Origin: Proteromonas lacertae
Lineage: Eukaryota
Reading direction: 5' to 3'
DNA length: 39,557 nt
Assembly (NCBI GenBank): GCA_002245135.1
Contig: NGBS01001220.1
Coordinates: forward strand, 1-39,557
The translations under genes and the position numbers were made by a program. The notes under the pieces are model-generated. The model searched no databases. It was not told the origin of the DNA and saw nothing but the letters and a program-made list of their open reading frames with translations. Positions 3,001-34,383 of this stretch are shown in pieces (positions within the stretch are counted from its first letter, which is position 1; every line of letters starts with the position of its first letter).

Positions 3001-6000
3001 ATCCAAGAGAAATTGAACTTATTATTATCAGCTGAAAACTTTGAAATATTGAGAAAGAATACTATATTTAAAGGTAATTTCGTAGTTCAAGATATTGCAG
3101 TGAAACTATCAAGAAATAAAGAACAATCATTAATAGATATTCATGTATCAAATGTTTCAGCTGATATAACAAGAAGACAATATGATACAAAGATAATATC
3201 AAGTTTAGGTCAGTTGTATATCATTGATAATTATGAAGCAAAGAAAGCAGTATATATATATATCTTATATTTATATATTCATTTTATAGAATTCAACTGA
3301 ACCTGTTTACTTCATGAATTCCAGTGGTGGTGATGGTAATAATAAAGACAATAATAATTCATTGTTCTTAGTTGATTTAACAATGGTTGAATTAGGATCT
3401 CCACTTTATGATTCAATAGGTACAGATATGAGTATCAATGCAAGGTTTGGTAAAATGGATTTATTTATACACAATGACACTGTATTAGAAGTATTGAAAT
3501 TCTTCTTATCCACTCAATTACCATCATCCAAACCAGAGAAAGGAAATGGAAAAGAAGAAGAAGAGAAAGAAGAAGAAAAGAAATCTATTTCTTCATCATT
3601 TGTGTCCTTTGTTAATACTTTACCCAATATTGACACTAATAAAATCTTACAATCTAAAAAAGAAGAAGATTTAATAGATGTTAATAGAAATGAAATAAAA
3701 TTATCATTAGAATTTCATTCATTTACAGTTACTCTCTTTACAAATGATAGTAAAGAAATCACAAGATATGAATTTGGTAATTCCAATGTTGATTTAGAAA
3801 TGAGACCTTTTGGTATATTTATCAGTGGAAACTTTGGTTATTTATCACTTATCGATTTAAGAGGAAAATCCTTGTCAGAATATAGAGATATTATATCAGC
3901 TGGAATAAAGAAAAGAATGAAAGTTTTATATCATTTAATTTAGTAATGTATAAAATGACCAAGCATCCTGATTATCCTGGTTATGATATTGTTATTAGTT
4001 GTTCATTGAATCACTTAAAAGCTGTGATGAATGGTTATTTCTTTATTGCATTATTACAGTTTTATATGGAGTTAGTTATACCTTTAATGAAGATATTGAA
4101 TGAATATTTACCATCCAATGAAACTGATAATAATAACAAATTGCAACAACAACAACAACAACCTAATAATGATTTAGCATCTGCAAGTATTAAAGATTAT
4201 GATTTATCATCTGTATTACCATTAATCAACTTAACAATAGGTAATTTACAGGTAATTATACCTCGTCATGAAACAAGTAAAACCTATTTAAATGCAGGAA
4301 TGTCTGAGTTGAAATTATCCAATATCAAACCATCAACTAAAGATGCAAATGATATTGTGAATTCATTATCTAAATTGTCGTTGAAAATGAATAATTTATA
4401 CATATCATCACAAATACAACAACAAAATAATAATAATCTATTAAAACAAATTATATTGGGTCATACTGGATTTGAAGTGAATTGTATTATTCTAAAAGAT
4501 ATATCTGTAAATGTAAACATGTTACCATTATGTTTTGTTATTGATCATAAACAGATTGATTGTATTTTATTCATTTTAAATGATAATCTAATGCCATTAT
4601 TGAATTTAGTTTCACTATTACCACCATTACCATCATCAGCATCAAATACTGAAAATGATACAAAACAAATAATCAATGAATTAAAAGAGAATCAAAATAG
4701 ACTATCAGTGATAGGTGAAGATGATGAAGAAGAATCAAGTGAAGAGGAAGAAGATGAAAGTGATTTAAATACACCTGGTAGTGAACATGTTAAACATCAT
4801 CATCACAAACATCATCATAAACATCACAATCATACTCAAATTAACACTGAGATGTTGAATTTAGATGTAATTAATGAATATATACCAACTACAAGTGTTA
4901 ATGCTTATTTTACAGCTGTTACTTTGGAAGTATTTAAATCAGAAAATCCATTTGATGATAATACTGAAAGTGTAACAATTCAAAAGAATTTCGGTAATAA
5001 TGAAGATTCATTAGCTTTATTCCAAATAGGTGAAATGATTGTTTTCTTAAGAATAAATGAATCAATTGAATTAAGATATCAATTAAGAGATATTACATTG
5101 AAAGATACTAGACACAATTATGAAATAGTTGAAACGGCTAGAAATATTATTAAATTTGGTGCATTAGGTCAACCAGCAGCTACTTTGATATTCAATATGA
5201 AAACAAATGAAAATAAAACAACAGAAATGGGAATTGATATGAATTTAAGTGAAATCTATTTATGTCCAACATCATTATTATTTGAACTTTTAAATTGGTT
5301 CTTCCAGAAAGAGAATGACAATGAAAAAATAGAAAAATCAAATGAAATTGTTTTTATAGAAAATCTACTAAAAGGTAATGAAAGTGATAATATGTTATTA
5401 TTATCTGATACAATCACTACTACAACATTTACTCCTCGTACAATTAATGACACTAACACAGATGCAAAGAGTGTAGATACAATGACAACTGCAACTTCAG
5501 TAACAACCATAGAAACAACAACAAAGATAAAATTAGATGTGAAATTCTCATTGACCAATATTGCATTATTCTTCTTCCAAAATGAATGTGATAAGAATTC
5601 ATTTGTATTGTCAATCGGTATAGGAATGAGTGGTAAGTTTGATATGGATGAAAAGATGAATATTTCAACCCAATTAAGAACTGAAAGATTGTATGGATGT
5701 GTTATAAAAACTGATTTAATTATTCCACCAATTAATGATTCATTCTCTATTTTACCTACATCCTTAATATTGAATTGTAATATTAAAAATAACTTCAAAG
5801 ATATTGGATATGAGATAATTGCTGATAAAAGATTGGTTGTAAGATTATCTTATAAAGATATAATGATAATGAGTGGAACAATGGAGACTTTAATGAAATG
5901 TATTAACACGTTACAACCATCACCAGATGAAGCTGCTGCAGCAGAAGCAACAACAACAACAGAAAAAGTAGAAGAAAAGGTGGAAGAAAATGTGAATAAT

Positions 6001-12567: not shown

Positions 12568-15500
12568 TTATAAATTGTCATTTACTTTTTTCAACATTTC
12601 TTCAAATTCTATCCTTTGAAATTCATCTTCAACACTGGATATATATTTACTTGCTTCATTCAAATATTTCTTTGATTCTTCATAATCTTTCTATTTTCAT
12701 TATAATCACATTCATATATATACAATATCAAAATAACATTCACCCATTTCATTATTACATCTAAATCTCTCATAATCACTTTTAGCTAATTTTAATGCAT
12801 TATTATATTGTTCTTTAGCTTCATCAATAGTACCTAGCTTAAATAAATACTTACACACATATATATAATATAGGCATCTATCTTCATCTGATTCAGCAAA
12901 TTCAATTGCCGAAGTAATACAATTAAATGAGTTTTCATTATCATTCTATTAAAATAACAATTGAAATATATACAAAACCCAAATAACAATCACCTAAATT
13001 CATAAAACACATATATTTTTGTTTATTTGTTGATGATACTTCTAATGCAGATTTATAATAATCTAATGATTTTTCATACTCTTTCTATAATAAAAGTAAA
13101 TTAGACACTACTATACAATATTAAAATAGCATAAACCAATATTTAAATTGCAACTATAATTCTCTTCATCTGTTGATGCAAGATTTAATGCACATTCAAA
13201 ATAATCTTTTGCTTTTTCATATTCCCTCTATAATAATAATAATAATAATTGTTTATAATCATACAATCTTCAAATCACAAACACCTATTCTAAAGTTGCA
13301 TAAGTAAATCTTTTCATTTGTGGAAGCAAAGTCTAAAGCAGATTCTAAATATTCAATTGCTTTTTTAATTTTTCTCTATATTATCATTTATATCAAGTAT
13401 AATACTGCTAGTTCATAAAAATTACTGATAGTGAAACAACATTCGTATTTTTCTTCATTTTTAGAAGTGAATTGTAATGCAGACTTAAAATGTTCTAAGG
13501 AATCATTAAAATCACCCTATAATATGAATATTTTTATGGTTATACTAGATTGCCATAACACAATGCTATATGGTTGTTACATAAATATTTCATTCTGTTA
13601 ATATATTGCAAAGATTCTTCATCTAAAGGGTTAAGATGTTCTAATTCATAGAGATTCTCAAATGCAGTTTTAAAATATTTTATAGCTTGTTCATATTCTT
13701 CAACATTTGCACTACACAAACCAATATTAAAGTAACAATCACATTTTTCTCTATTTGTAAATGCAAAAACTAATGCTGATTCAAAACGCTCTTTAGATTC
13801 TTTAAATTGATTCTATACATTCATTTATACACAAAATTTATACTAGATTTCGATAACTTTCACCAATTTTGAATTTGCATTTAAATTTTTCATTATTTGT
13901 AGATGAATCATTTAGAGCAGTTACAAGGTATTCTATTGATCTTATATAATTCTTCTATAAAGAAATAATAGATAATATATTTACAGAGTTAAAACTTTCA
14001 CTTCCTCTTGTATAATTTTCAATGTATTTTTTTACTTTTGTAAGTTTTTCAATATATTCTTCATCTTCTATTGAGTATAAGAACTTGATTATTGAGTTGA
14101 TTGTATCCAGGTTGTTATGATCAATTAAATCAATCAGTATATGTAAATCATTTAGATATATTTCTTTGTTCTTTTTCAATTCTACTGCATCATCTTCACC
14201 ATATGGAGGATTCTTTTGATTTATTGAAGGAAAGAATTTCTATGATTTAAATAAATAAAGATATTTCTATACAATTGTTAATTCAATTTTCCAATACGAT
14301 GAGAATTCTTTATTGCTCATTTTAATGATTTCTTTTAATGTTTTACCTTCTATAAAACCACCTCCTAAATAAAAATTCAGAATTTTAGAATCACAAAAAG
14401 AAGTATCTTCACTTGTTCCATTATTCACTGAAGTTGAAGGTAATGTTGAATCATTATTAATATAAGCATTAACTTCTTTAAACATATCTTCAAATAATTT
14501 CTTATCATATGGATCTTCTACACCTGAAATATAAATATTTGCTTCATTCAAATGTTTCTTGGATTCTTCATAATCTTTCTATTCTCATTATAATAATCAT
14601 CATATTATATACAACATCAAAATAGCATTTACCCATTATATATTCACAACTAAATTTCTGATAATCAGTTTTGGCTAATTTTAATGCTTTCTTATATTGA
14701 TCTATAGCTTGATTATTAATACCAAGTTTAAATAAACATTCACACATAAACATAAAACATATAAGTCTATCTTCATCAGATTCAGCAAATTCTAATCCTG
14801 AGATATAAAATCCCAAAGCTTCTTTATATTCTTTCTATAATTATTATAACTGCATAAATTATACAAGATTCATATTAATACAACCTAAGTTTATACTACA
14901 TTTGTGTTTATTTTTTTTTATTATTGCAAATTTTGACGCAGATTTATAATACTCTATTGCTTTATCTAATTCATTCTATTGTATTATAAATAACAAATAA
15001 TCATACTAGATCTGCATAACATACACCTATACCAAACACACAATTGAATTTTTCTTCATCTGATTCAGCAAATTTTAATGCATCATTCAAATGTTCAATT
15101 GATTTTATATTTTCTTTCTATAAATCAATTTATATCAACTATTATACTTTCGATAAAAAATATCTACTTATATTAAGATAACATTCATATTTCTGTTTCT
15201 TTGTTGAGGAGAATTCTAATGCAGAATTAAAAGAATCAATTGCTCTGTCATATTCAAGCTATAACATTAATATCATCATAATTATACTATTGCAGAATAA
15301 CATTTACCTATAGTAGAATTACACTCATATTTATCTTCATTTGTTGAGGCTAATTCTAAGGCAGAATTTAAATAGCCAAATGCTCTGTCATATTCAAGCT
15401 ATAATATAAACAACTGTTAAAATCAATACTAAATATGTATAACACACACCAAGAGTGTAATTACTTTTGCATTTCTTGTTATTCATTTTAGATTTTGATG

Positions 15501-17354
15501 ATTCTGTTAAACTACAATCATTTTCTATTGAAGATATTATATCTAATGTAGTTTCTAAATAACTTATCGAATGTCTGTATTCTTTCTATCACATTAAATG
15601 AATAATTAGTTATACAAGAGCAGCATAACATAAACCAATATAAAAGTTACAATCACATTTTTCTTCTTTTGATGATGCAAAAACTAATGCAGATTCACAA
15701 TGCTTTAATGATTCTCTGAAGTAATTCTATCACATAAAATTCTTAAGAAACAATACAATTTCAAAATATGATTTACCTAGATTGTAATTACATTGGTGTA
15801 ATTCTTCATCTGTATTAGCATTCTTTAAAGCACATAATGAATATTCTATTGATTCTTTATTATCATTCTATGTAATAAATAATTCATAATAGTTATACAA
15901 CTTTATTATATAATTCTGCTAAATTAAAACAACATTTGAATTTATCTAATTTTGTATTAGCATTCTCTAAAGCAGATTTAAAACATTCTATTGCTTTTTC
16001 ATATTTTTGCTATAAAACAAGATAAACATCCTATATACATAATCAAAATATTTTGTAGCTTCTTCAAAATTTTCTTTGAATGTTTTTTCTTTTGTAAGTT
16101 TCTCCATATATTCTTTATCTTCTATTGAGTCTAAGAAGTTAATCATTGAGTTGAGTAGATCATCGTTGTTGTGATCTATTAAATTTATTAAGATATGTAA
16201 ATCATTTAGAAAATTGTCTTTATTCTTAATTAATTTTTTGGCGTCTTCTTTAGTATATGAAGGATTATCTTGACCTATTGAAGGAAAGAACATCTATTAT
16301 ATAAATGTATTTATGTTTTTATACAAATTTAAATTCATCTTTCCAGTAGGATGAAAATTCTTCTTGTTTTATATCACAATATTCTTTTAATGTTTTACCT
16401 TCTATATTACCTTTTCCTAAATAAAACGATAAAATTAATGAATAATATGATGAAAAACTAGCTAATTCGTTTGAAGCTTCAGCTATTGATGGTGAAGAAA
16501 ATGATGAATCACTTATAGAAGGAACAGGAGGAGTGTTTGATATTTTGTTTATTTCTTCTTCTATCTCATCAAGTTTTATTCTTTCATTCATATTTTTCTC
16601 TAACATTCGCTTTATTAATGCTTCTATTTGAGGAATTTTAACTCCACTTACTCTCACAAAATCTAATTCTGTTCTTAAAAATAAATTATTTATTATCTCC
16701 CTTTTGTTCTTTCCTTCAAAAGCCATTCTTAATGTATAAATCTCATATAAAATACATCCTAAAGCAAATATATCACTGGCTGATGAATAGGGACGAGGGA
16801 TTCTATTGGTTATTTCAGGAGCCATGTAACTATAAGTTCCTTTCAATACATCATCAGTACTATCAATTCCAGTTGCTAATCCAAAATCACTTATTATTAA
16901 TTCATTATGATCTCCTACTAAAATATTTCCTGGTTTTAAATCTCGATGAATTATTCCTTTACTATGAATATACTTTAAACCATTTATTAAATCTTTCATA
17001 TACATCATCATTTCCTAAAGATCATTAATATATCATCATATATACATTTACTGAGAAATCTTCTTTTTTATCTTTCTTTTCATCTATCAGCTTCCATAAA
17101 TCACCATTTTTTAAATACTCTGTGTATATATAGCATATATTTTCTTCTTCAATTATTACACTATCTTTTAGTATCAAGATATTTCGATCTCTCAACTCTT
17201 CTAAAATCTTTATTTCATTTTTTATTGTCTCTAAATATCCTGATTCTACTTTAATCTCTTTTCTAGCTAGCTTTAAACCATTATGTCTTACTAAACACAC
17301 TTTGCTAAAACCACCTTCTCCAATTGTTTCATATTTTTCATCATTTATTTTCAT
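12568..17354 (-). CDS. Array gene A: Ser/Thr kinase (NEK-like) + two tandem [OGFr-like + TPR-like array] modules
   Basis: Exon 1 17354-17046 (GEGGFSKV, ARK); intron 17045-17015; exon 2 17014-16325 (HRDLKPGN, DFG, APE, DIFALG, then FYLGKGNIEGKTLKE); intron 16324-16294; FFPS exon; eight single-repeat exons plus a double exon. The cap exon at 14578 reads on into a second linker/OGFr-like unit and a second repeat array, ending ...MLKKVNDNL* at 12568. Confidence 0.85.
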
Positions 17355-17609: not shown

Positions 17610-20294
17610 TTATTTATAAGCATTTACTTTTTTCAACATTTCTTCAAATTCTTTTCTTTCTTCATCATCTTCTACACTTGATATGTATTTACTTGCTTCA
17701 TTCAAATATTTCTTTGAAACTTCATATTCATTCTATTTTCATTAAAATAATCTTTTATACATTTTCAAAATAACATTTACCCAGTGTTTTATAACAAGTA
17801 AACTTTTCATAATCACTTTTAGCTAATTCTAATGCATTATTATAATGATCTTTTGCTTCATCAATAGCACCAATATTAAATAGACATTGGCAAAGATATA
17901 TATAATATAAACATCTATCTTCATCTGTTTCTGCATATTTAAAAGAATCTATAAAGAATTCCATTGATTTTTCATATTCTTTCTATAATATTTATAGTTA
18001 AAACAATTATACAAGTTTCAAATAATCATCACCTATGTTATTATAACAAGTAAATCTTTCCTTGTTTGAAGATGCAAGTTTCAAGGCTAAGTTATAATAA
18101 GAGATTGATTTTGTATAATCTTTCTATAATGTTTTATTATTGAACAATCATACTATATTTTTACAACAAACACCTAATAAAAAATAACAATCATATTTCT
18201 CTTCATTTGTTGAAGAATTTTCTAAAGCAGATAAATAAAACTGTATTGAGTTTTGGTATTGTTTCTATACATATACAATAACAAATACAATATAATAATA
18301 ACTATTCCCAATATAACATTTATGATTGTATTTATCATTATTAGAGACAGCATCTAAGGTATATTTTAAATAATCAATTGCTTTTTCATATTCTTTCTAT
18401 AGCAAATATAATATATTGACTTACCAAAGAATATAAATTTAGACCAATGCATGCTTTGCACAAATATTTTTGTTCATTTGTTTTGGCATTATCTAAAGCT
18501 AATTTATAAAATTTTGTTGAATTATCATATTCTGCCTATTATATATATAATTTCAACATTAATACAAGTTGTATATAACTTTTGCCTATTTTTGTATGAC
18601 ATTCATATTCTTGTTCATTTGTATTGGCATTATTTGAGGCAGATTTATAAAATGGAATAGATTCTTCTATTTTGCCCTATTCATTTATATATTATGATAA
18701 TTATACGACATTCACAAAACAATCACCTATATTTATACTGCAAGTATATTTTCTTTCATTTGTTTTGGCATTTTCTAAAGCTATTTTATAATGTTTGATT
18801 GAATTATCATATTCTGCCTATTAAACTTGTTATTGCAAATATTATACAAGTTGAGCATAACACCAACCAATTCTGTTTTCACAGTCATATTTTTCTTCAT
18901 CTGAAGAGACATTTTCCAATGCAGATTTTAAGCAATTAATTGATTTTCCACATTGTTTCTATAAGATTCATTACTTTATATGATAATACAAGTTGAACAT
19001 AACACTTACTAATATTTAGTCTACAGGTATATTTTTGTTCATTTGTTGAAGAATTTTCTAAAGCAGATTTAAAACATTCTATTGAATTATTATATTCTGC
19101 CTATTATATATATAATTTCAACATTAATACAAGCTGAAAATAACAAGTACCAATTTTCATTTCACATTCATATTTTCTTTCATTTGTTTTGGCATTTTCT
19201 AAAGCTATTTTATAATGTTCGATTGAGTTTTCATAGTCATTCTATTCAATATAAAATACTACAATTATACCTCTCTTTTATAAAATGAACCTAAGGTGTA
19301 ATAACCAATGAATTTATCTTCATCAGTTTCCGTATAATCTAATGCATTTAGTAAATACCCTTTGGATATTTCAAGTTCGTTCTACTCATTTATAATTATA
19401 AATAATTATACAAGATTCAAATAACACTTTCCTATATTTGAAATACATTTAAATTTTTCTTTCTTTGAAGTAGCATAATCTAAGGCAGTTTCTAAAATAT
19501 CTCTGGATTTTTCAAATTGCCTCTATACATTAGAAATATCCTTTACTCATACTCTATGAAAATAACATTCACCTATTTTATAATTACATTCACATTTTTC
19601 TTCATCTGTAAAGGAATTTTCTAGTGCTCTAGACATATATTTTATTGAGTTTTCATAGTCATTCTATTCAATTCATAGTTATATTTATCATACAACTATC
19701 AAATAGCATAAACCAATTTTGTAACTACTTTCATACTTTTCTTTATTTGTCAAAGAATTCTCTAAAGCTGTTATATAACATTTTATCGATGGCTCATATT
19801 CATGCTATAATAATACATTAAATATTCTTCTTATACCAAATTAAAATATCTATTTCCTTCATTATAATTATCTTCATATTCCATGTGTTTTCTTTCTTTG
19901 TTGAGTAGTTGTATATATTCTGTATCTTCTATTGTTTCTAAAAAATCTATTATATTGTCGAGATTATCTTTACTTTTGTCAATTAAATCAATCAATCTAT
20001 GTAAATCATTTAGATAAACATCTTTGTTATTCTTTAGCTCAGTTGAATCATCTTCAGTATAAGGAGGATTATTTTGTTTATGTGATGGAAAGAATCTCTA
20101 ATCATATTAACTACTAGATTTATATATACAATTACTAAATTATCATTCCAATATGAAGAAAACTCTTCTTTATCCATTTCAATAATCTCTTTTAAAGTCT
20201 TTCCATTAATAGCTGCACCTTTTAAATAAAATAACAGAATTACAGAATTACAATATAATAAATTTCCTGATTCTTCACTTGTAGTAGTAGTGGC

Positions 20295-20329
<35 letters not shown>

Positions 20330-21178
20330 CAGTTGATGCAGAAGGATATGATGTATCACTAATATAAGGAACAGGAGGAGCTGTGTTTGGTAATTTGTTT
20401 ATTTCTTCTATTTTGTCTTTTTCTTCATCAATTGTGTCTATCATATCTTCAATTTTATCAAGGTTTATTCTTTCACTTTCATCTTTTTTTAACATTTGCT
20501 TTATTAACTCTTCAATTTGAAAAAATCTTTTTCCACTTATTCTATCAAAATCTAATTCTTTCCCTGACTGTAACTCATTCTCTATTTCTTTTTCATTTCT
20601 TTCTTTAAATATAACATTCAATGTGTATATTTCATAAAATATACATCCAAGAGAAAATATATCACCAAATTCGTTACATCTAGAAGGTAAATTTAAGATA
20701 GAATCTTTAGAAATGTAATTTATCATTAATTCATTTCTTTTTCCTACTAAGATATTCTCTAGTGTCAATTCTTTATGATTTAATTCTATACTGTGAATAT
20801 ATTTTAATCCATTTACTAGATCCATCATACACTCAACTATTTCCTATAACAATTATACATATATTACTTCCAGTATACCTCTAAAGAGAAATCTTCACTC
20901 ATTTCTTTTCTTTTACTTATTACATCACATAAATTTCCCTTTTCAACGTAATCTGTGAATATATAACAAACATTTTCACTCTTAACAATCTCATAGTCTT
21001 TCATTCTCAAAATATACCTATCTTTCACAGTGATTAATTTTTCACATTCTCGTTTTACTAATTCTATGGATTTTGGAGTTATATTAAAGCCTTTCCTTGC
21101 CATTATCACTCCATTGCGATTTACTTTACATAATTTCTTCACATCGCCTTTTGCAACATTAGAAATAGCATTGTTCAT
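17610..21178 (-). CDS. Array gene B: pseudokinase + poly-Thr linker + OGFr-like + TPR-like array (13 single-repeat exons + double exon + cap)
   Basis: Kinase fold is recognisable (MARK, YIFTDYVEKGNL, GLKYIHS, ENILV, DIFSLGCIFYEI), but the Gly loop is lost, HRD is HKE, DFG is replaced by NYI and the activation segment/APE is deleted. ~141-nt exon+intron periodicity over 19805-18013. Stop TAA at 17610. Confidence 0.85.
18530..19240. repeat. Internal four-exon-period duplication in the TPR array of gene B (also in D)
   Basis: tctgcctattatatatataatttcaacattaatacaag, which includes a whole intron, occurs at 18531 and 19096 (offset 565, about 4 x 141). tttcatttgttttggcattttctaaagctattttataatgtt recurs at ~18754 and ~19178. 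Confidence 0.85.
20280..20330 (-). repeat. (ACT)n coding microsatellite giving the poly-Thr linker of gene B (copy at ~27613-27663 in D)
   Basis: gtagtagtag run on the + strand; translates as STATTTTTTTTTTTATTTTS. Confidence 0.9.
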
Positions 21179-21242
21179 CTTATAAGTGCTTTAATTGCAA
21201 AATATACCTCTCTTAAATGAAAAAGAAAATTAAAAAAAAGAT

Positions 21243-21260
21243 TCAAACCTGTAATCAAGC
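21243..21260 (-). promoter_or_regulatory. Same candidate element before gene B
   Basis: tcaaacctgtaatcaagc, ~65 nt upstream of the ATG; flanks are unrelated to those of gene A. Confidence 0.55.
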
Positions 21261-21343
21261 CTAGTTTTTCTTTTAAGAATAAATATTACTTAAAATAAAA
21301 AAGTATGAATAAGCTAGTTTGTATATATATTATGATAAATCTT

Positions 21344-23473
21344 CTATATTCTTATAATCTCTCCAAATTCTATTTTAAAACTATCTTCAACTATATTCCA
21401 CATATATTTACTCGATTCGTTTAGGTACTTCTTAAATTCTTCATATTTGCCCTATTTTATCAAATGCAAAATATATACCCTTTCAAAGAAACAGTTACCT
21501 ATTATAAAGTTACACCTAAATCTTTCATGGTCATTATTGGCTAATTTTAAAGATTCATTATATAGATAATTCGATTCTTCTACTGGATTGATGTTAAACA
21601 TATATTTACACATATTAATGTAATATAAACATTTGTCTTCATCTGATTCTGCAAATTCAAATGCTAAAATAAGATTATTCATTGCCTTTTCATCATTTTT
21701 CTATTATAATTTCATATTAAAATAATAATAAAACATACCATATTAAAATAACAATCACTTATACTCATATTGCATGTAAATTTTTCTCCATTTGTAGAAG
21801 CGCATTGAAAAGCATAATTATAATTTTCAATTGCTTGTTGGTAATGTTTCTATTATATATTATAAAAAACAATTATACCAAATTCCAATAACTATTGCCA
21901 ATATTTATATAGCAGGTATATTTTTCTTGATCTATTAAGGTGTTACCTAATACTGATTTATTATATTCTATTGAATCTTCAAGTTCATTCTAAATATTAA
22001 TTATATTAATAATATACACTATCCATACAACCACCATTTATACCAAAACTACATATATATATATCTTTATCTGTAGAATTGGCTTTTTCAAAGACATCTT
22101 TATAATATTCTATTGGTTTTTCAGTTTCATTCTATCATATAATAATAACATTACTTATCATAATAACAATACAGTAATAAAACACTTACCAAGATATACA
22201 ATACTGACACTTTTCTTTTCAATTTCAAATGCATTTTCTAAGGCAGATTTATAGTATTTTATTGAGTTTTCATATTGTTCCTAGTTAATATAGAAGTATT
22301 ATACAATATTCCAATAACATTCACCTATAATTGTGTTACATATGTATTTTTCTTCATTCTTAGAAGCATTCTCTAAGGCTGATAAAAAATAGTGTATTGA
22401 TTCTTGATAGTTATTCTATAATAATAACTGAAATAACTATACATTTATGAAATAACACATTCCTAAGCTATAAAAACAATAATAATTTTCTAATGACATT
22501 ATCATATTTACTTCTGCTTGTTGCTCATGAGTATATTCATTAATTTCAAAACTATTATGATCACTTTCTAAAGCAGATTTATAATAATTTATTGACCTTT
22601 CATATTCCATCTATTGATTAAAATAATAAGCATACCTTTTTGAAATATATATTACCCAAAAAATATTTGCTAATGAATATCTGAAAATTAATTTTCGTAA
22701 GATCCAATCCATTCAGAAAATATATTTTGGATTTTTCATACTCATTCTGTTACATCATAAATATAAAGATATAATACATTAATAAAATAATTAAATCCTA
22801 TTCGAATAAAACAGTAATATTTCTCTTTCTTTGTACAACAAGATTCCAATGCCATAGAAAAATATTCATCAGCTTTATCATTATCTTTCTACAATATAAT
22901 TAATACTACATATATACAAGATTCATAAAACACAATCCAATATGGTAATTACAGTCATATCTTTCTATTATTGTAGTATTAAATTCAAATGCAGATTTAT
23001 AAAACTGCATTGATTTATCATAGTCTTTCTATTATTTACATAACTATTCAACAATACAAGATTGAAATAACATTCTGCAATTCTGAAATGACATTCATAT
23101 TCCTCTTCTTTTGATGAAGTGTTGTTTAATGCAATTGTAAAACACTCTATAGAGGATTTATAATTCATCTATTAATAACAATATTATCATATATATTTAC
23201 ATACAAAATATAAATTCTTTTTCCCTTCCTCATAATTATCTTTATACTTTTTTTCTTTATTCAGCTTTTCTACATATTCATAATCTTCAATTGATTTTAA
23301 AAAGTTTAATATTTTGTTGAGATTATCTTTACCATGATCTATCAAGTCAATTACCCTATATAAATCATTTATAAAGCTATCTTTTCTGTTTTCCAATTTC
23401 ACTGCATATTCTTTAGTATATTCACTGCCTTTTTCATCCACTGAAGGAAATAACAACTATTTTTATGATTATA

Positions 23474-23510
<37 letters not shown>

Positions 23511-24544
23511 CCAAATAATCATCTTTCCAGAATGAAGAAAATTCTTCTAAATTCATTTTTCTAATTTCTTTTAGTGTTTTACCTTCTATATTCCCACCTC
23601 CTAAATAGAAATTGAGAATAAAAGAATCACAGTTAGAAGAAAAACTAGCTTCTTCACTTGATGTATTATCTATTGATGGTAATGGTAATGTTGAATTATG
23701 GCTAACATAGGCAATAGGAGGAGTATTTAACATTTGGATTACTTCTTTTTCTATTTCATCAATTTTTATTCTTTTATTGACATCTTTCTCTAACATTTGC
23801 TTTATTAATTCTTCTATTTGCTGGAATCTTATTCCACTTAACCTTCTAAAGCTCATTTTTTCATTATATTTTATCCTATTCTTTATAACTTCATTATTTT
23901 CTCCATCAAAAGCCATTCTTAATGTATATATTTCATAAAATACACAACCTAAAGCAAATATATCACTGGCTGATGAATAGGGACGAGGGATTCTATTGGT
24001 TATTTCAGGAGCCATGTAACTATAAGTTCCTTTCAATACATCATCATTATTTTCATTTTCAGTTGCTAATCCAAAATCACTTATTATTAATTCATTATGA
24101 TCTCCTACTAAGATATTTCCTGGCTTTAAATCTCGATGAATTATTCCTTTGTTATGAATATACTTTAAACCATTTATTAAATCTTTCATGTACATCATCA
24201 TTTCCTAAATATCATTGATATATCATCATATATACATTTACTGAGAAATCTTCTTTTTTATCTTTCTTTTCATCTATCAGCTTCCATAAATCACCATTTT
24301 TTAAATACTCTGTGTATATATAGCATATATTTTCTTCTTCAATTATTACACTATCTTTTAGTATCAAGATATTTCGATCTCTCAACTCTTCTAAAATCTT
24401 TATTTCATTTTTTATTGTCTCTAAATATCCTGATTCTACTTTAATCTCTTTTCTAGCTAGCTTTAAACCATTATGTCTTACTAAACACACTTTGCTAAAA
24501 CCACCTTCTCCAATTGTTTCATATTTTTCATCATTTATTTTCAT
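21344..24544 (-). CDS. Array gene C: chimeric Ser/Thr kinase + OGFr-like + TPR-like array (10 single-repeat exons + double exon + cap)
   Basis: Exon 1 matches gene A exon 1. HRDLKPGN/DFG/APE are intact. From ASDIFALGC onward it matches gene E. Repeat exons span 23168-21738. Stop TAG at 21344. Confidence 0.85.
23457..23508 (-). repeat. Intron lengthened to 52 nt by a (TA)n microsatellite (gene C; the copy in E is one unit shorter)
   Basis: (TA)n run follows the GT donor; the C/E offset changes from 7333 to 7331 across it. Confidence 0.8.
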
Positions 24545-24606
24545 TATGCTCTTAAATCAAATTGTTATTTCTATGAGTTAAAAAACAGAAATTTTATGAT
24601 TTGAAG

Positions 24607-24625
24607 TCAAACCTAAGAATCAAGC
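24607..24625 (-). promoter_or_regulatory. Same candidate element before gene C
   Basis: tcaaacctaagaatcaagc, a duplicate of the gene A upstream region. Confidence 0.5.
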
Positions 24626-24738
24626 TTATATAACTCATATTCTTTTATATAGATGTAAACATAATTACTTTGGTATGACCAAATTTAATAGGATAAATAA
24701 AATATCAAATTATTAAATACTGTTTGAATTACCCTACC

Positions 24739-24770
<32 letters not shown>

Positions 24771-24805
24771 GATTTATGATATTATTTAACAATAAAATTG
24801 TGTTT

Positions 24806-27627
24806 TTATTTATAAGCATTTACTTTTTTCAACATTTCTTCAAATTCCTTTCTTTCTAATTCATCTTCTACAATGATATACTTCATTGCTTCATTCAAGT
24901 ATTTCTTTGAATCTTCATATTCATTCTATTTTCATTAAAATAATCTTTTATACATTTTCAAAATAACATTTACCCAGTGTTTTATAACAAGTAAACTTTT
25001 CATAATCACTTTTAGCTAATCCTAATGCATTATTATATTGATTTATAGCTTCTTCAATAGTACCAATATTAAATAAACATTCACACATATTAATATAATA
25101 CAAACATCTATCTTCATCTGTTTCTGCATATTTAAAAGAATCTATAAAGAATTCCATTGATTTTTCATAATCTTTCTATAATATTTATAGTTAAACAGTT
25201 ATACCAATTTCAAATAATCATCACCTATGTTATTATAACAAGTAAATCTTTCCTTGTTTGAAGATGCAAGTTTCAAGGCTAAGTTATAATAAGAGATTGA
25301 TTTTGTATAATCTTTCTATAATGTTTTATTATTGAACAATCATACTATATTTTTACAACAAACACCTAATAAAAAATAACAATCATATTTCTCTTCATTT
25401 GTTGAAGAATTTTCTAAAGCAGATAAATAAAACTGTATTGAGTTTTGGTATTGTTTCTATACATATACAATAACAAATACAATATAATAATAACTATTCC
25501 CAATATAACATTTATGATTGTATTTATCATTATTAGAGACAGCATCTAAGGTATATTTTAAATAATCAATTGCTTTTTCATATTCTTTCTATAGCAAATA
25601 TAATATATTGACTTACCAAAGAATATAAATTTAGACCAATGCATGCTTTGCACAAATATTTTTGTTCATTTGTTTTGGCATTATCTAAAGCTAATTTATA
25701 AAATTTTGTTGAATTATCATATTCTGCCTATTATATATATAATTTCAACATTAATACAAGTTGTATATAACTTTTGCCTATTTTTGTATGACATTCATAT
25801 TCTTGTTCATTTGTATCGGCATTATTTGAGGCAGATTTATAAAATGGAATAGATTCTTCTATTTTGCCCTATTCATTTATATATTATGATAATTATACGA
25901 CATTCACAAAACAATCACCTATATTTATACTGCAAGTATATTTTCTTTCATTTGTTTTGGCATTTTCTAAAGCTATTTTATAATGTTCGATTGAATTATC
26001 ATATTCTGCCTATTAAACTTGTTATTGCAAATATTATACAAGTTGAGCATAACACCAACCAATTCTGTTTTCACAGTCATATTTTTCTTCATCTGAAGAG
26101 ACATTTTCCAATGCAGATTTTAAGCAATTAATTGATTTTCCACATTGTTTCTATAAGATTCATTACTTTATATGATAATACAAGTTGAACATAACACTTA
26201 CTAATATTTAGTCTACAGGTATATTTTTGTTCATTTGTTGAAGAATTTTCTAAAGCAGATTTAAAACATTCTATTGAATTATTATATTCTGCCTATTATA
26301 TATATAATTTCAACATTAATACAAGCTGAAAATAACAAGTACCAATTTTCATTTCACATTCATATTCTTGTTCATTTGTATTGGCATTATTTGAGGCAGA
26401 TTTATAAAATGGAATAGATTCTTCTATTTTGCCCTATTCATTTATATATTACGATAATTATACGACATTCACAAAACTATCACCTATATTTATACTGCAA
26501 GTATATTTTCTTTCATTTGTTTTGGCATTTTCTAAAGCTATTTTATAATGTTCGATTGAGTTTTCATAGTCATTCTATTCAATATAAAATACTACAATTA
26601 TACCTCTCTTTTATAAAATGAACCTAAGGTGTAATAACCAATGAATTTATCTTCATCAGTTTCCGTATAATCTAATGCATTTAGTAAATACCCTTTGGAT
26701 ATTTCAAGTTCGTTCTACTCATTTATAATTATAAATAATTATACAAGATTCAAATAACACTTTCCTATATTTGAAATACATTTAAATTTTTCTTTCTTTG
26801 AAGTAGCATAATCTAAGGCAGTTTCTAAAATATCTCTGGATTTTTCAAATTGCCTCTATACATTAGAAATATCCTTTACTCATACTCTATGAAAATAACA
26901 TTCACCTATTTTATAATTACATTCACATTTTTCTTCATCTGTAAAGGAATTTTCTAGTGCTCTAGACATATATTTTATTGAGTTTTCATAGTCATTCTAT
27001 TCAATTCATAGTTATATTTATCATACAACTATCAAATAGCATAAACCAATTTTGTAACTACTTTCATACTTTTCTTTATTTGTCAAAGAATTCTCTAAAG
27101 CTGTTATATAACATTTTATCGATGGCTCATATTCATGCTATAATAATACATTAAATATTCTTCTTATACCAAATTAAAATATCTATTTCCTTCATTATAA
27201 TTATCTTCATATTCCATGTGTTTTCTTTCTTTGTTGAGTAGTTGTATATATTCTGTATCTTCTATTGTTTCTAAAAAATCTATTATATTGTCGAGATTAT
27301 CTTTACTTTTGTCAATTAAATCAATCAATCTATGTAAATCATTTAGATAAACATCTTTGTTATTCTTTAGCTCAGTTGAATCATCTTCAGTATAAGGAGG
27401 ATTATTTTGTTTATGTGATGGAAAGAATCTCTAATCATATTAACTACTAGATTTATATATACAATTACTAAATTATCATTCCAATATGAAGAAAACTCTT
27501 CTTTATCCATTTCAATAATCTCTTTTAAAGTCTTTCCATTAATAGCTGCACCTTTTAAATAAAATAACAGAATTACAGAATTACAATATAATAAATTTCC
27601 TGATTCTTCACTTGTAGTAGTAGTGGC

Positions 27628-27662
<35 letters not shown>

Positions 27663-28511
27663 CAGTTGATGCAGAAGGATATGATGTATCACTAATATAA
27701 GGAACAGGAGGAGCTGTGTTTGGTAATTTGTTTATTTCTTCTATTTTGTCTTTTTCTTCATCAATTGTGTCTATCATATCTTCAATTTTATCAAGGTTTA
27801 TTCTTTCACTTTCATCTTTTTTTAACATTTGCTTTATTAACTCTTCAATTTGAAAAAATCTTTTTCCACTTATTCTATCAAAATCTAATTCTTTCCCTGA
27901 CTGTAACTCATTCTCTATTTCTTTTTCATTTCTTTCTTTAAATATAACATTCAATGTGTATATTTCATAAAATATACATCCAAGAGAAAATATATCACCA
28001 AATTCGTTACATCTAGAAGGTAAATTTAAGATAGAATCTTTAGAAATGTAATTTATCATTAATTCATTTCTTTTTCCTACTAAGATATTCTCTAGTGTCA
28101 ATTCTTTATGATTTAATTCTATACTGTGAATATATTTTAATCCATTTACTAGATCCATCATACACTCAACTATTTCCTATAACAATTATACATATATTAC
28201 TTCCAGTATACCTCTAAAGAGAAATCTTCACTCATTTCTTTTCTTTTACTTATTACATCACATAAATTTCCCTTTTCAACGTAATCTGTGAATATATAAC
28301 AAACATTTTCACTCTTAACAATCTCATAGTCTTTCATTCTCAAAATATACCTATCTTTCACAGTGATTAATTTTTCACATTCTCGTTTTACTAATTCTAT
28401 GGATTTTGGAGTTATATTAAAGCCTTTCCTTGCCATTATCACTCCATTGCGATTTACTTTACATAATTTCTTCACATCGCCTTTTGCAACATTAGAAATA
28501 GCATTGTTCAT
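24806..28511 (-). CDS. Array gene D: pseudokinase + OGFr-like + TPR-like array; near-copy of gene B with one extra repeat exon
   Basis: ORFs 28197-28511 and 27367-28161 are identical to 20864-21178 and 20034-20828. The offset to gene B shifts from 7192 to 7333 at ~26365-26505. Stop TAA at 24806. Confidence 0.85.
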
Positions 28512-28575
28512 CTTATAAGTGCTTTAATTGCAAAATATACCTCTCTTAAATGAAAAAGAAAATTAAAAAAAAGAT

Positions 28576-28593
28576 TCAAACCTGTAATCAAGC
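28576..28593 (-). promoter_or_regulatory. Same candidate element before gene D
   Basis: tcaaacctgtaatcaagc, a duplicate of the gene B upstream region. Confidence 0.5.
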
Positions 28594-28676
28594 CTAGTTT
28601 TTCTTTTAAGAATAAATATTACTTAAAATAAAAAAGTATGAATAAGCTAGTTTGTATATATATTATGATAAATCTT

Positions 28677-30806
28677 CTATATTCTTATAATCTCTCCAAA
28701 TTCTATTTTAAAACTATCTTCAACTATATTCCACATATATTTACTCGATTCGTTTAGGTACTTCTTAAATTCTTCATATTTGCCCTATTTTATCAAATGC
28801 AAAATATATACCCTTTCAAAGAAACAGTTACCTATTATAAAGTTACACCTAAATCTTTCATGGTCATTATTGGCTAATTTTAAAGATTCATTATATAGAT
28901 AATTCGATTCTTCTACTGGATTGATGTTAAACATATATTTACACATATTAATGTAATATAAACATTTGTCTTCATCTGATTCTGCAAATTCAAATGCTAA
29001 AATAAGATTATTCATTGCCTTTTCATCATTTTTCTATTATAATTTCATATTAAAATAATAATAAAACATACCATATTAAAATAACAATCACTTATACTCA
29101 TATTGCATGTAAATTTTTCTCCATTTGTAGAAGCGCATTGAAAAGCATAATTATAATTTTCAATTGCTTGTTGGTAATGTTTCTATTATATATTATAAAA
29201 AACAATTATACCAAATTCCAATAACTATTGCCAATATTTATATAGCAGGTATATTTTTCTTGATCTATTAAGGTGTTACCTAATACTGATTTATTATATT
29301 CTATTGAATCTTCAAGTTCATTCTAAATATTAATTATATTAATAATATACACTATCCATACAACCACCATTTATACCAAAACTACATATATATATATCTT
29401 TATCTGTAGAATTGGCTTTTTCAAAGACATCTTTATAATATTCTATTGGTTTTTCAGTTTCATTCTATCATATAATAATAACATTACTTATCATAATAAC
29501 AATACAGTAATAAAACACTTACCAAGATATACAATACTGACACTTTTCTTTTCAATTTCAAATGCATTTTCTAAGGCAGATTTATAGTATTTTATTGAGT
29601 TTTCATATTGTTCCTAGTTAATATAGAAGTATTATACAATATTCCAATAACATTCACCTATAATTGTGTTACATATGTATTTTTCTTCATTCTTAGAAGC
29701 ATTCTCTAAGGCTGATAAAAAATAGTGTATTGATTCTTGATAGTTATTCTATAATAATAACTGAAATAACTATACATTTATGAAATAACACATTCCTAAG
29801 CTATAAAAACAATAATAATTTTCTAATGACATTATCATATTTACTTCTGCTTGTTGCTCATGAGTATATTCATTAATTTCAAAACTATTATGATCACTTT
29901 CTAAAGCAGATTTATAATAATTTATTGACCTTTCATATTCCATCTATTGATTAAAATAATAAGCATACCTTTTTGAAATATATATTACCCAAAAAATATT
30001 TGCTAATGAATATCTGAAAATTAATTTTCGTAAGATCCAATCCATTCAGAAAATATATTTTGGATTTTTCATACTCATTCTGTTACATCATAAATATAAA
30101 GATATAATACATTAATAAAATAATTAAATCCTATTCGAATAAAACAGTAATATTTCTCTTTCTTTGTACAACAAGATTCCAATGCCATAGAAAAATATTC
30201 ATCAGCTTTATCATTATCTTTCTACAATATAATTAATACTACATATATACAAGATTCATAAAACACAATCCAATATGGTAATTACAGTCATATCTTTCTA
30301 TTATTGTAGTATTAAATTCAAATGCAGATTTATAAAACTGCATTGATTTATCATAGTCTTTCTATTATTTACATAACTATTCAACAATACAAGATTGAAA
30401 TAACATTCTGCAATTCTGAAATGACATTCATATTCCTCTTCTTTTGATGAAGTGTTGTTTAATGCAATTGTAAAACACTCTATAGAGGATTTATAATTCA
30501 TCTATTAATAACAATATTATCATATATATTTACATACAAAATATAAATTCTTTTTCCCTTCCTCATAATTATCTTTATACTTTTTTTCTTTATTCAGCTT
30601 TTCTACATATTCATAATCTTCAATTGATTTTAAAAAGTTTAATATTTTGTTGAGATTATCTTTACCATGATCTATCAAGTCAATTACCCTATATAAATCA
30701 TTTATAAAGCTATCTTTTCTGTTTTCCAATTTCACTGCATATTCTTTAGTATATTCACTGCCTTTTTCATCCACTGAAGGAAATAACAACTATTTTTATG
30801 ATTATA

Positions 30807-30841
<35 letters not shown>

Positions 30842-31871
30842 CCAAATAATCATCTTTCCAGAATGAAGAAAATTCTTCTAAATTCATTTTTCTAATTTCT
30901 TTTAGTGTTTTACCTTCTATATTCCCACCTCCTAAATAGAAATTGAGAATAAAAGAATCACAGTTAGAAGAAAAACTAGCTTCTTCACTTGATGTATTAT
31001 CTATTGATGGTAATGGTAATGTTGAATTATGGCTAACATAGGCAATAGGAGGAGTATTTAACATTTGGATTACTTCTTTTTCTATTTCATCAATTTTTAT
31101 TCTTTTATTGACATCTTTCTCTAACATTTGCTTTATTAATTCTTCTATTTGCTGGAATCTTATTCCACTTAACCTTCTAAAGCTCATTTTTTCATTATAT
31201 TTTATCCTATTCTTTATAACTTCATTATTTTCTCCATCAAAAGCCATTCTTAATGTATATATTTCATAAAATACACAACCTAAAGCAAATATATCACTTG
31301 CTGTTGAATATGGACGAGCTCCTTCATCCCATAACTCAGGAGCTATAAAATTTGGAGTTCCGTTTAGTAAATAATCAGTACTATCAATTCCAGTTGCTAA
31401 TCCAAAATCACTTATTATTAATTTTTTATGATTTCCAACTAAAATATTTCCTGGTTTTAAATCTCGATGAATTATCCCTTTACTGTGAATATATTTCAAT
31501 CCACTAACTAAATCTTCCATAAAATTAATTATTTCCTATATAATTTATTCATATTACTTCATTTATACTGTAAATGTAAAATCTTCATTTTTACTGATCT
31601 TCTCATCTATTAATTTCCCTAAATCTCCTTTCTTTACATATTCTGTGTATATATAACGCATATTTCCATCAATCTCATAATTTTTCATTAATAACACATT
31701 TGGATGATCCAGCTGCTGTAGAATACTAATTTCATTTTTAATAGCATCTTCCAATTGTTCTGTTATTTTTATTTCTTTTCTAGCTAGCTTTAAACCATTA
31801 TGTTCAACTAAACACACTTTGCTAAAAGCACCTTTTCCAATTATTTCATATTTTTCATCATTTGTTTCCAT
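28677..31871 (-). CDS. Array gene E: Ser/Thr kinase + OGFr-like + TPR-like array
   Basis: Exon 1 METNDEKYEIIGKGAFSKV...HPNVL; exon 2 HRDLKPGN, DFG, GTPNFIAPE. The 3' part is essentially identical to gene C at offset 7333. Stop TAG at 28677. Confidence 0.85.
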
Positions 31872-32071: not shown

Positions 32072-34383
32072 TTATTTATCATTCAATTTTTTAAATATTT
32101 CTTCTAATTCTCTATTTGACTCTTCATTTACACTTGATTTATATTTATATGCTTCACATAAATACTTCTTGGCATTTTCTATATCATTCTATTTTCAAAA
32201 TAATAATAATAATCATTATAGTATATATACTCTTTCAAAAAGAAGTTTACCCAATTTATAACTACATATAAATCTTTCAACATCTGTATTAACTGATTCT
32301 ATTGCTCTATTATAATTATCTACTGCATCATCTATCATACCAATACTATACAAACAAGCACACATATACATATTGCATAAGCACTTATCCTCATTCAATT
32401 CTACATATTCTAATGCTAAAAGTAGGTATTCCATAGATTTTTCAATATTATTCTATTATATTAACAATTCAAATAATCATACAAGTTTCAAATAACTTGC
32501 ACCTAAGTAGAAACAACATTCGTATTTTACTCTATTTAAGCATGGTAGTTCTAAAGCCCATTTGAAATGTTCTATTGATTTTTCATACTCTTCCTATTTA
32601 ATTATATAACCATTTAAAAACTTACCATATCATAATAACAATAACCTTTTTTATATTCAAATATAAAACACTCATCTTTTGTAAATATATCTTTCACTCG
32701 AGATGAAAAATTTTCTATTAATTGTTTATATTCGTTCTATTTATATATATATATATATATTATTAAAAATAAATATATACTAATTTGTTGTTACATATAT
32801 CAATATTTAATTCACAATTCTGTCTTTCTTCACTTGTTGTACATTTTTCTAGTGTTGATTGTAAATATTTCATTGACATTTTATTTTCTCTCTATCATAA
32901 TATTATTCATTATATTATACAAGAAAGGAACAATAGTTAGACATAATAGCTGAATAATATGAAAGCATTTTTTGTTTCGTTGTTGTATACTTTAATCCTT
33001 CTTCTAAATATTCTGTTGATATATCATATTCTTTCTATTATAATGTCTATAATTATATGCATACTAGAACTGAATAGCAAATAGCTATATCATAATAACA
33101 AGAGCTTTTTTCTATATCTACATAAGATACTTCCAATGCAGATTTAAAATAATCAATTGCTTTTATGTAGTCTTGCTATTAATTCATAAAGTCAAATATA
33201 TATACAACACTTTCATAGCATTTACCTAAATAGTAAATACATGAACATTTTTCTACATTTGTATAGGCAAATTGTAAAGCAGTAGTCAAACATTCTATCG
33301 ATTTTTCATTCTCTTTCTATTAAAAAAAAAGTATAAGTATTAATTACTATAATCATACAAGATTGTAATAACATCTTCCAATGTTAGAGTAGCAAAGACA
33401 TTTATTTTCATTTATATAGGCAGTTTGTAATGCAACTTGATAAAACTGTATAGATACTTCATATAATCCCTATTCAAAATAATAAACAACACTTATATAT
33501 ACCATTATTAAGTAATTTTCACCAATACTAGTATTACATTGAAATCTTTCTACATCATCAGTTGCCAACTCTACAGCTTTAAGTAAAAATTCTATTGATA
33601 CTTCACATTCACCCTATCAAATTGATAAATAAATGAATATAAAATACAAGATCCATATAACAAAAGCCAATTTTGCTACTACATTCATATTTTTCTTTAT
33701 TTGTAGATGCATATGTCAATCCACGATAAAAATACTCTAATGCTTTAGCATATTGTTTCTAATTGTATAATAGTAAAAAATAGATTTACTGTAGAGAAAT
33801 AGTTATCTCCTGTATTTATTAATGATTTACATGTTTCTTGATCTGTTTGGGTAATTAATATCTTAGTATTATCATTAGGTATTTCATTTACATCATATGA
33901 AGGTTTTAAATATTCCAATTCCCTTAAGATGTTTACTGGAGGTTGTTCATATTTTTCTATAGATCTTTTCACTTCAATCAGTTTTTCAACATATTCATTA
34001 TCTTCTATAGACGATAAGAAGTTTATCATTGAATTGACTACATCTTTGTTGTTTTTATCAATCAAGTCAATTAGTTTATGCAAATCATTTAAATATTTGT
34101 CCTTGTTATTCTTTAATTCTGCTACTTCTTCATTTGTATATGACGGTTCTACTTGGTTGATTGAGGGAAAGAATATCTATTGTATAAACAAATATAATAA
34201 ATGATATACAAATACAAAATCATTTTTCCAGAATGAAGAAAAAACTTCTGGCTTTATTTCAACAATCTCTTTTAAGGTTTTGCCTTCAATTACTCCATTT
34301 CTTAAATAAAAATTGAGTACTAAAGAATTATAGTTAAGAGAATAATTAGCTAGTTCACTAGATGCAACACAAGGTGGTAACAT
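32072..34383 (-). CDS. Array gene F: kinase-less member (OGFr-like + TPR-like array)
   Basis: Starts MLPPCVASSELANY...LNFYLRNGVIEGKTLKEI. An intron precedes the IFFPS exon, then nine single-repeat exons, a double exon and a cap ending FKKLNDK* at 32072. Only ~300 nt separate it from the WDR35 stop, so no kinase exons fit upstream. Confidence 0.8.

Follow-up and report, generated by a model that had tools for sequence, protein, structure and literature searches.

A Probable Degenerate OGFr_N Domain Upstream of TPR Arms in a Kinase and Pseudokinase Gene Cluster of Proteromonas lacertae

A small domain, predicted to be helical, stands directly upstream of each TPR arm in a tandem gene cluster of Proteromonas lacertae, and profile-profile comparison indicates that it is very probably homologous to the opioid growth factor receptor domain OGFr_N, i.e., a shrunken variant of this known domain. 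OGFr_N occurs in human OGFR and OGFRL1 and in many microbes and viruses. The protist domain is not a formal member of the Pfam family PF04664.

The window, which is the whole 39,557-nt stretch of contig NGBS01001220.1, is eukaryotic, with about 25% G+C and short GT-AG introns. Flanking the cluster are VPS13, encoded on the plus strand, and IFT121/WDR35, encoded on the minus strand, the latter pointing to a flagellated lineage. A C2H2 zinc-finger match (E 3e-4) was observed inside the VPS13 gene (2644-3300). Between these flanks lie six tandem minus-strand genes at a spacing of 165-261 nt, the models of which were built from DNA alone.

12568..17354, minus strand: g6, modelled with 22 exons and about 1378 aa; an intact kinase followed by two domain-TPR units, the domains lying at 16444-16039 and 14392-13985
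17610..21178, minus strand: g5, modelled with 18 exons; a pseudokinase, then the domain (20249-19843) and a TPR arm
21344..24544, minus strand: g4, modelled with 15 exons; an intact kinase that combines g6-like and g2-like parts in a mosaic, then the domain (23628-23205) and a TPR arm
24806..28511, minus strand: g3, modelled with 19 exons; a pseudokinase, then the domain (27582-27170) and a TPR arm that exceeds that of g5 by one repeat
28677..31871, minus strand: g2, modelled with 15 exons; an intact kinase, then the domain (30959-30538) and a TPR arm
32072..34383, minus strand: g1, modelled with 13 exons; kinase-less, with the domain (34329-33922) ahead of a TPR arm
19170..31300, unstranded: 7.33-kb tandem repeat, in which the g3 plus g2 part recurs as the g5 plus g4 part

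The kinases of g2, g4, and g6 have retained their glycine loop, HRD, DFG, and APE, all of which are missing from the pseudokinases of g3 and g5; a poly-Thr linker was also seen in the latter two genes (20281-20338). Genes with intact kinases and pseudokinases alternate from g2 to g6 (17610-31871), and one gene of each type falls within the 7.33-kb unit. Letter identity within this repeat was found between 19170-23967 and the positions at offsets of +7333/+7331; the repeat could instead represent two haplotypes assembled in tandem. The gene models leave no room for an NB-ARC domain, and Pfam matched only kinase and TPR in these genes. The kinase-domain-TPR fusion proposed in the sequence-only reading stands for five of the seven modules, which are kinase-headed, but not for the other two, since the module at 34311 opens g1 and that at 14374 comes after the first TPR arm of g6.

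The domain copy that had been placed at 13990..14400 was confirmed there, on the minus strand at 14392-13985 with one intron, and is resolved as follows, together with the block starts of all copies.

14273..14392, minus strand: N-terminal exon part of domain copy 7, with FYL, GKTLKE, and W, the best OGFr-like block
14240..14272, minus strand: GT-AG intron of phase 0 and 33 nt within domain copy 7, at a position common to the seven copies
13985..14239, minus strand: domain copy 7, C-terminal exon, with FP, P-x-x-x-x-D, and two long helices
14374, 16426, 20231, 23610, 27564, 30941, 34311, minus strand: start positions of the FYL block in the seven copies

In the C-terminal exon of copy 7, the core ends near 14063 and is followed by a helix that leads into the TPR arm. 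In every one of the seven copies, a phase-0 intron lies two codons upstream of FP, with a length of 31-52 nt. The splice junction is contiguous in the intron-free relatives P0004, P0005, and P0017, which confirms the splice and sets the domain size at about 100 residues. A TA microsatellite opening the domain intron differs by one unit between duplicates (23457-23508 vs 30790-30839). Seven copies are indeed present, as had been claimed, but only five are distinct because the 7.33-kb tandem repeat makes two pairs identical (27564 = 20231 and 30941 = 23610). The distinct copies share 46-70% identity per exon. Across 82 codons, dN/dS is 0.18-0.43 in all ten pairs of distinct copies, and the domain is therefore kept by purifying selection.

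The OGFr references comprised 120 bacterial loci from a motif scan, of which 40 of 40 tested were PF04664, and 21 viral loci; the bacterial set was picked by an HDYIQW-type motif, and in one set, ten bacterial rows were hand-picked once the first scores were seen. Eight short bacterial ORFs, the L081-L120 fragments, and three duplicate viral rows were excluded. HHalign of the domain against OGFr gave a probability of 94.9% (P 4.7e-8, 64 columns) with unspliced tool alignments and 92.9-94.4% with unselected OGFr sets (all 90 non-duplicate rows or 18 viral). Against Pfam-verified OGFr, P ranged from 5e-8 to 4e-7, which multiplied by 24,736 Pfam models corresponds to E of about 0.001-0.01. Additionally, Logan rows alone, which involve no manual splicing, gave 94.3-94.5% over 96-100 columns. 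As the alignments deepened, the probability rose from 31% to 87%, 92.9-94.4%, and 94.9%, and the score grew with depth on either side, from 28 through 40 to 48-54. Thus, the degenerate OGFr_N likeness that had been noticed by eye is supported by significant profile-profile similarity, and the lack of such similarity that would have spoken against it was not observed; of the HMMER/HHpred-type check suggested for it, the Pfam HMM part returned no match.

Controls remained well below these values, with real domain-OGFr scores at 46-54 and controls at 12-27. Decoys from 153 neighbour families all stayed under 2% (best score 18.5), host VPS13 windows reached 17.9 at best (n = 19), a TPR profile scored 16.6 and DUF1810 12.4, 100 column shuffles gave at most 26.8, and 7-column block shuffles reached 26. 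When 5253 locus ORFs were ranked, 19 of the top 20 matches were OGFr, with 148 mutually related OGFr ORFs present. The block order and spacing were borne out as well: with the viral OGFr set left unedited, 96 columns align in the register noted from the sequence, the C-terminal register was also chosen by MAFFT, and five blocks stand in shared order and spacing across 64-100 columns. Most of the OGFr signal lies in the N-terminal 64 columns; the N-terminal exon alone gave 69% against OGFr and the C-terminal exon alone 0.2%.

At the level of single HMMs, the relationship was not detected. PF04664, with its cut-off of 22 bits, matched none of the window exons, the two read-throughs, or the 15 database proteins, and our own HMM from 90 OGFr proteins gave the domain at most 15.6 bits. 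Pfam on the exons and read-throughs returned weak unrelated matches only (RhoGAP, SatD, E at least 0.002). Single OGFr proteins scored no better than genome noise. In 30 OGFr-holding genomes, none of seven matches to the first profile was OGFr, with decoys at 12-19 bits; genome scans with a deeper profile gave 0/5 and 0/4 OGFr matches, few candidates having passed the first look. Support for the C-terminal half peaks only after the FYG-HN loop is cut by hand from OGFr (58.2 vs at most 48.8 in 40 shuffles), and this loop-cut register outscores all 40 shuffles when the deeper alignment is used, its lead being only narrow when the first one is. The probability was 73-95% for 20 random halves of the OGFr set, dropping its four best single scorers and L128 lowered the broad score to 87%, and short alphaproteobacterial OGFr forms gave 4% against the domain. 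Among the 120 of 233 matches listed for a mixed profile, 118 were ordinary PF04664 proteins and two were family fragments, a result that is circular as a homology test; the best score of these matches under the domain-only HMM was 19.4 bits. One global-mode alignment placed the last helix on the FYG helix instead, a register never picked by later alignments.

The domain retains the FY, G-K/R, FP, and P-x-x-T blocks. In its N-terminal FY...G-R-x-L block, F is present in 12 of 14 rows, Y8 in all 14, G in 11, and K or R in 13; the FP pair is retained as well (F42 9/9, P43 10/10). The positions kept relative to OGFr are F7, Y8, G17, the basic residue 18, F42, P43, P55, and the hydrophobic faces. 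The erosion of HxYIQW and of RITR that had been described was upheld: H35 and Q39 are found in 0/14 rows and W40 in 0/9, Y in 5/14 and D in 3/14, and R123 in 0/14 and R126 in 1/14. E32 is also lost, and H119 and N120 of the HN motif occur in 4/14 rows each. The quoted 'HNN' is real in two of the five distinct copies but is not family-wide (H in 4/14 rows). Among the mixed-profile matches listed, exact HDYIQW occurs in 114 and HN..R in 117 of the 118 PF04664 proteins; P0004 has NEYANILFP in place of the OGFr HDYIQWLFP. Missing from the domain are the inter-helix loop between FYG and HN and the last helices; about 70 residues of the parent OGFr fold are absent. Every alignment stops before the conserved Trp (W166), where the TPR arm or a domain that we call domain Y stands instead. 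The domain has conserved residues of its own, namely W (14/14), K (12/14), and E (12/14).

Structure prediction yielded a weak window model (pLDDT 59.7), which holds 11 intron-derived residues, and an OGFr model, for L006, with a pLDDT of 95.6, which recovers the BFVD OGFr entry A0A481YX38. The helix order is the same in the OGFr model and the weak window model, and the first three helices of the latter (H3-8, H19-23, and H27-32) compare with H4-8, H20-24, and H28-33 in the former. Among the 50 of 63 BFVD matches listed by Foldseek for the weak window model, none had E under 2.5 and none was the BFVD OGFr entry; VIA-align of the same weak model gave a best Z of 5.7. Against the PDB, the OGFr model matched generic helical repeats (best Z 8.0) without a specific neighbour. 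No solved OGFr_N structure was found, and a PDB sequence search with the domain returned designed helical bundles only. The OGFr model also aligned with PDB 2jek (Rv1873/DUF1810) at Z 6.2 and rmsd 4.1 over 124 residues, with the F-P motif aligned and a profile support of 1%. DUF1810 (PF08837) likewise is a small helical domain with an aromatic-F-P motif; identity of the protist domain with it was rejected, with a profile comparison of 0.2% against 11 members.

A profile search of 1.84 billion proteins with the domain copies gave 15 matches at E <= 1e-3, 14 of which are members of the family and none of which is an OGFr protein; the fifteenth, a PAS protein, was taken as chance. The ten family clusters looked up held Logan sequences only. 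In these relatives, the domain comes after kinases or pseudokinases, and domain Y may replace the TPR arm downstream; P0017 shows the order kinase-domain-Y-domain. Domain Y, of about 85 residues, occurs downstream of the OGFr-like domain in one or two copies (P0005 residues about 268-440, P0017 residues about 280-362, and the N-terminal half of P0004) and had no match in Pfam, NCBIfam, or the ESM Atlas. The OGFr-like domain itself had no usable match in the ESM Atlas. Word-index searches found one relative and none among 7991 longer candidates, though longer relatives exist according to the profile search. No relative was present in the viral contigs searched. A metagenome match (L142:2877-5540) proved to be a non-LTR retrotransposon ORF2 with an end 47% identical over 31 residues to the first block and was taken as chance. 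In a tree built by a quick method without eukaryotic OGFr rows, the domain sits on a long stem of about 3.3 changes per column.

The TPR arms consist of about 9-16 repeats each, and the repeat unit of 37 residues equals one 111-nt exon. TPR_1 was matched by three of the four repeat pieces tested, all below its cut-off. The modelled introns are of phase 0 in 96 of 96 cases, a phase that the model itself favours. Among 40 repeat exons, variation is highest at positions 25, 27-29, 32, 35, and 36, which by TPR numbering we take to be the helix lining the binding groove. Near-identical gene copies are not alike in repeat number or in their kinase halves. Relative to g3, g5 is without one 141-nt exon-plus-intron unit, and two neighbouring g3-type exons are cleanly joined in its exon at 19241 (19131-19241 vs 26323-26574), a chimera with its crossover within the exons and in register. 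The g4 kinase (23509-24544) is g6-like at first and switches to g2-like sequence about 240 nt inside exon 2. The TPR arms thus likely recombine exon by exon; an assembly artefact as the cause is also conceivable.

As for the role of the domain, it is moderately probable that it is a shrunken, catalytically dead offshoot of OGFr_N, acting as a folded linker that would pass a signal from the variable TPR arm to the kinase or pseudokinase. A dead enzyme fold is proposed as a coupling module because the domain precedes the variable part and is copied with it, and because the active-site-like residues are lost while it is still conserved. In this mechanism, the TPR groove would bind a ligand or target, the domain would shift its contact with the kinase or a partner protein and so relay the binding, and the kinase, for which the alternating pseudokinase genes may supply partners, would be turned on; the cluster may then represent a recognition repertoire of a defence-like kind. 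The label non-catalytic is one that we infer, as the main-text literature searched yielded no biochemical activity for microbial OGFr members.

It is unlikely, in our judgement, that the domain is instead an OGFr-derived sensor with a pocket for an ADP-ribose-type ligand that gives the kinase a second input, or a decoy, i.e., bait for proteins targeting OGFr-family enzymes. A viral NADAR-OGFr_N fusion (E 3.7e-38 and 1.7e-22), a giant-virus-like protein in which OGFr_N is accompanied by weak NADAR, OTU, and UBA matches, OGFr_N inside an RNA-virus-like polyprotein, and its capture into retroviral Pol, as given in 10.1101/2021.11.23.469661, are consistent with such a role, as are the W, K, and E residues that the protist domain conserves on its own. 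However, the polar residues likeliest to line the OGFr pocket have been lost, with free variation at these positions among copies, no ADP-ribose partner recurs among 94 bacterial neighbours, and the literature yielded no activity for the OGFr family. A wider form of this idea, in which OGFr_N would be a family of ADP-ribose enzymes traded among viruses, bacteria, and eukaryotes, with a disarmed copy serving as decoy or sensor in exon-shuffled kinase/pseudokinase-TPR receptors, seems distinctly unlikely; if true, it would define a receptor class with an OGFr-derived switch where NB-ARC would be.

Homology itself would fail if the domain were an unrelated, lineage-specific helical domain whose OGFr_N likeness arose by convergence of short amphipathic blocks. 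The lack of an HMM-level match to OGFr_N, the blank fold search, the long stem, and the matching of the N-terminal block by unrelated proteins (the ORF2 end, and others at 12-15 bits) all fit this explanation, but it is rendered quite improbable by profile-profile P values that lie far beyond all decoys and improve with depth, by reproduction of the signal with Logan rows alone, and by five blocks that keep their order and spacing. Highly improbable is an active enzyme of altered chemistry, functioning as a second effector beside the kinase: purifying selection, the g1 copy without a kinase, and the few conserved polar residues would suit it, but no invariant His, Arg, Cys, or acidic pair in the OGFr-like core substitutes for those lost, and the truncation of the parent fold also argues against it.

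If the coupling module is indeed a disarmed OGFr_N, it constitutes a natural family in which the scaffold is kept and exactly the invariant polar residues are dropped; the likely active site would then lie at those residues, and OGFr assays would gain a ready negative control. The cluster also adds a protist receptor-like locus with a repeat arm rebuilt exon by exon and an unusual linker at the place of the nucleotide switch of algal and fungal receptors. No report of a kinase-OGFr-TPR fusion was found in the literature covered, which was mostly open-access main text, and a term search of the main text of PMC9503650 returned neither OGF nor opioid.

Compared with OGFr_N, the protist domain is alike in the order and spacing of the FY, G-R/K-T-L, FP, and P-x-x-T-x-x-D blocks; unlike the stand-alone microbial and viral OGFr_N forms, which span 150-180 residues, it is without the invariant E, H, Q, W, H-N, R, and R, falls below the Pfam cut-off, and lies mostly between a kinase and a TPR arm. 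Known occurrences of OGFr_N include a nematode effector (PMC5876317) and PF04664 proteins of plant-pathogenic fungi (PMC2409186). Among 94 bacterial OGFr neighbours, a conflict-type context was seen only for L028 and for a ParE gene near L001; in L028:2652-4970, an Acidobacteriaceae contig, the OGFr gene lies between REase-ARP and cREC_REC genes. Viral OGFr_N fusions were observed at L124:2410-3477, L132:3001-4659, L138:277-3921, and L136:166-5271, with NADAR, a UCH protease, weak OTU/UBA/NADAR matches, and a methyltransferase-helicase polyprotein as partners, and the viral OGFr_N protein L128:2995-3924 has at its C-terminus a domain of about 150 residues that matched nothing in Pfam or NCBIfam. 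Like these and the OGFr of amphibian retroviral Pol, as described in 10.1101/2021.11.23.469661, the protist copies are a mobile accessory domain in larger proteins; the viral and retroviral forms keep the family motifs and pass Pfam, whereas the protist copies do neither and reside in intron-rich host genes.

The closest parallel in architecture is found in the Ectocarpus NB-ARC-TPR and LRR-ROCO candidate receptors, in which, per PMC3341825 and PMC11378527, each repeat is encoded by one exon. These receptors share with the cluster gene clustering, the exon-per-repeat organization, same-phase introns, repeat numbers that differ between recent duplicates, and recombined exons. They differ in their repeats, which are of 42 residues in Ectocarpus and 37 in the cluster, and in their switch, which is NB-ARC or ROC-COR in the alga and a kinase or pseudokinase head with an OGFr-like linker in Proteromonas lacertae.
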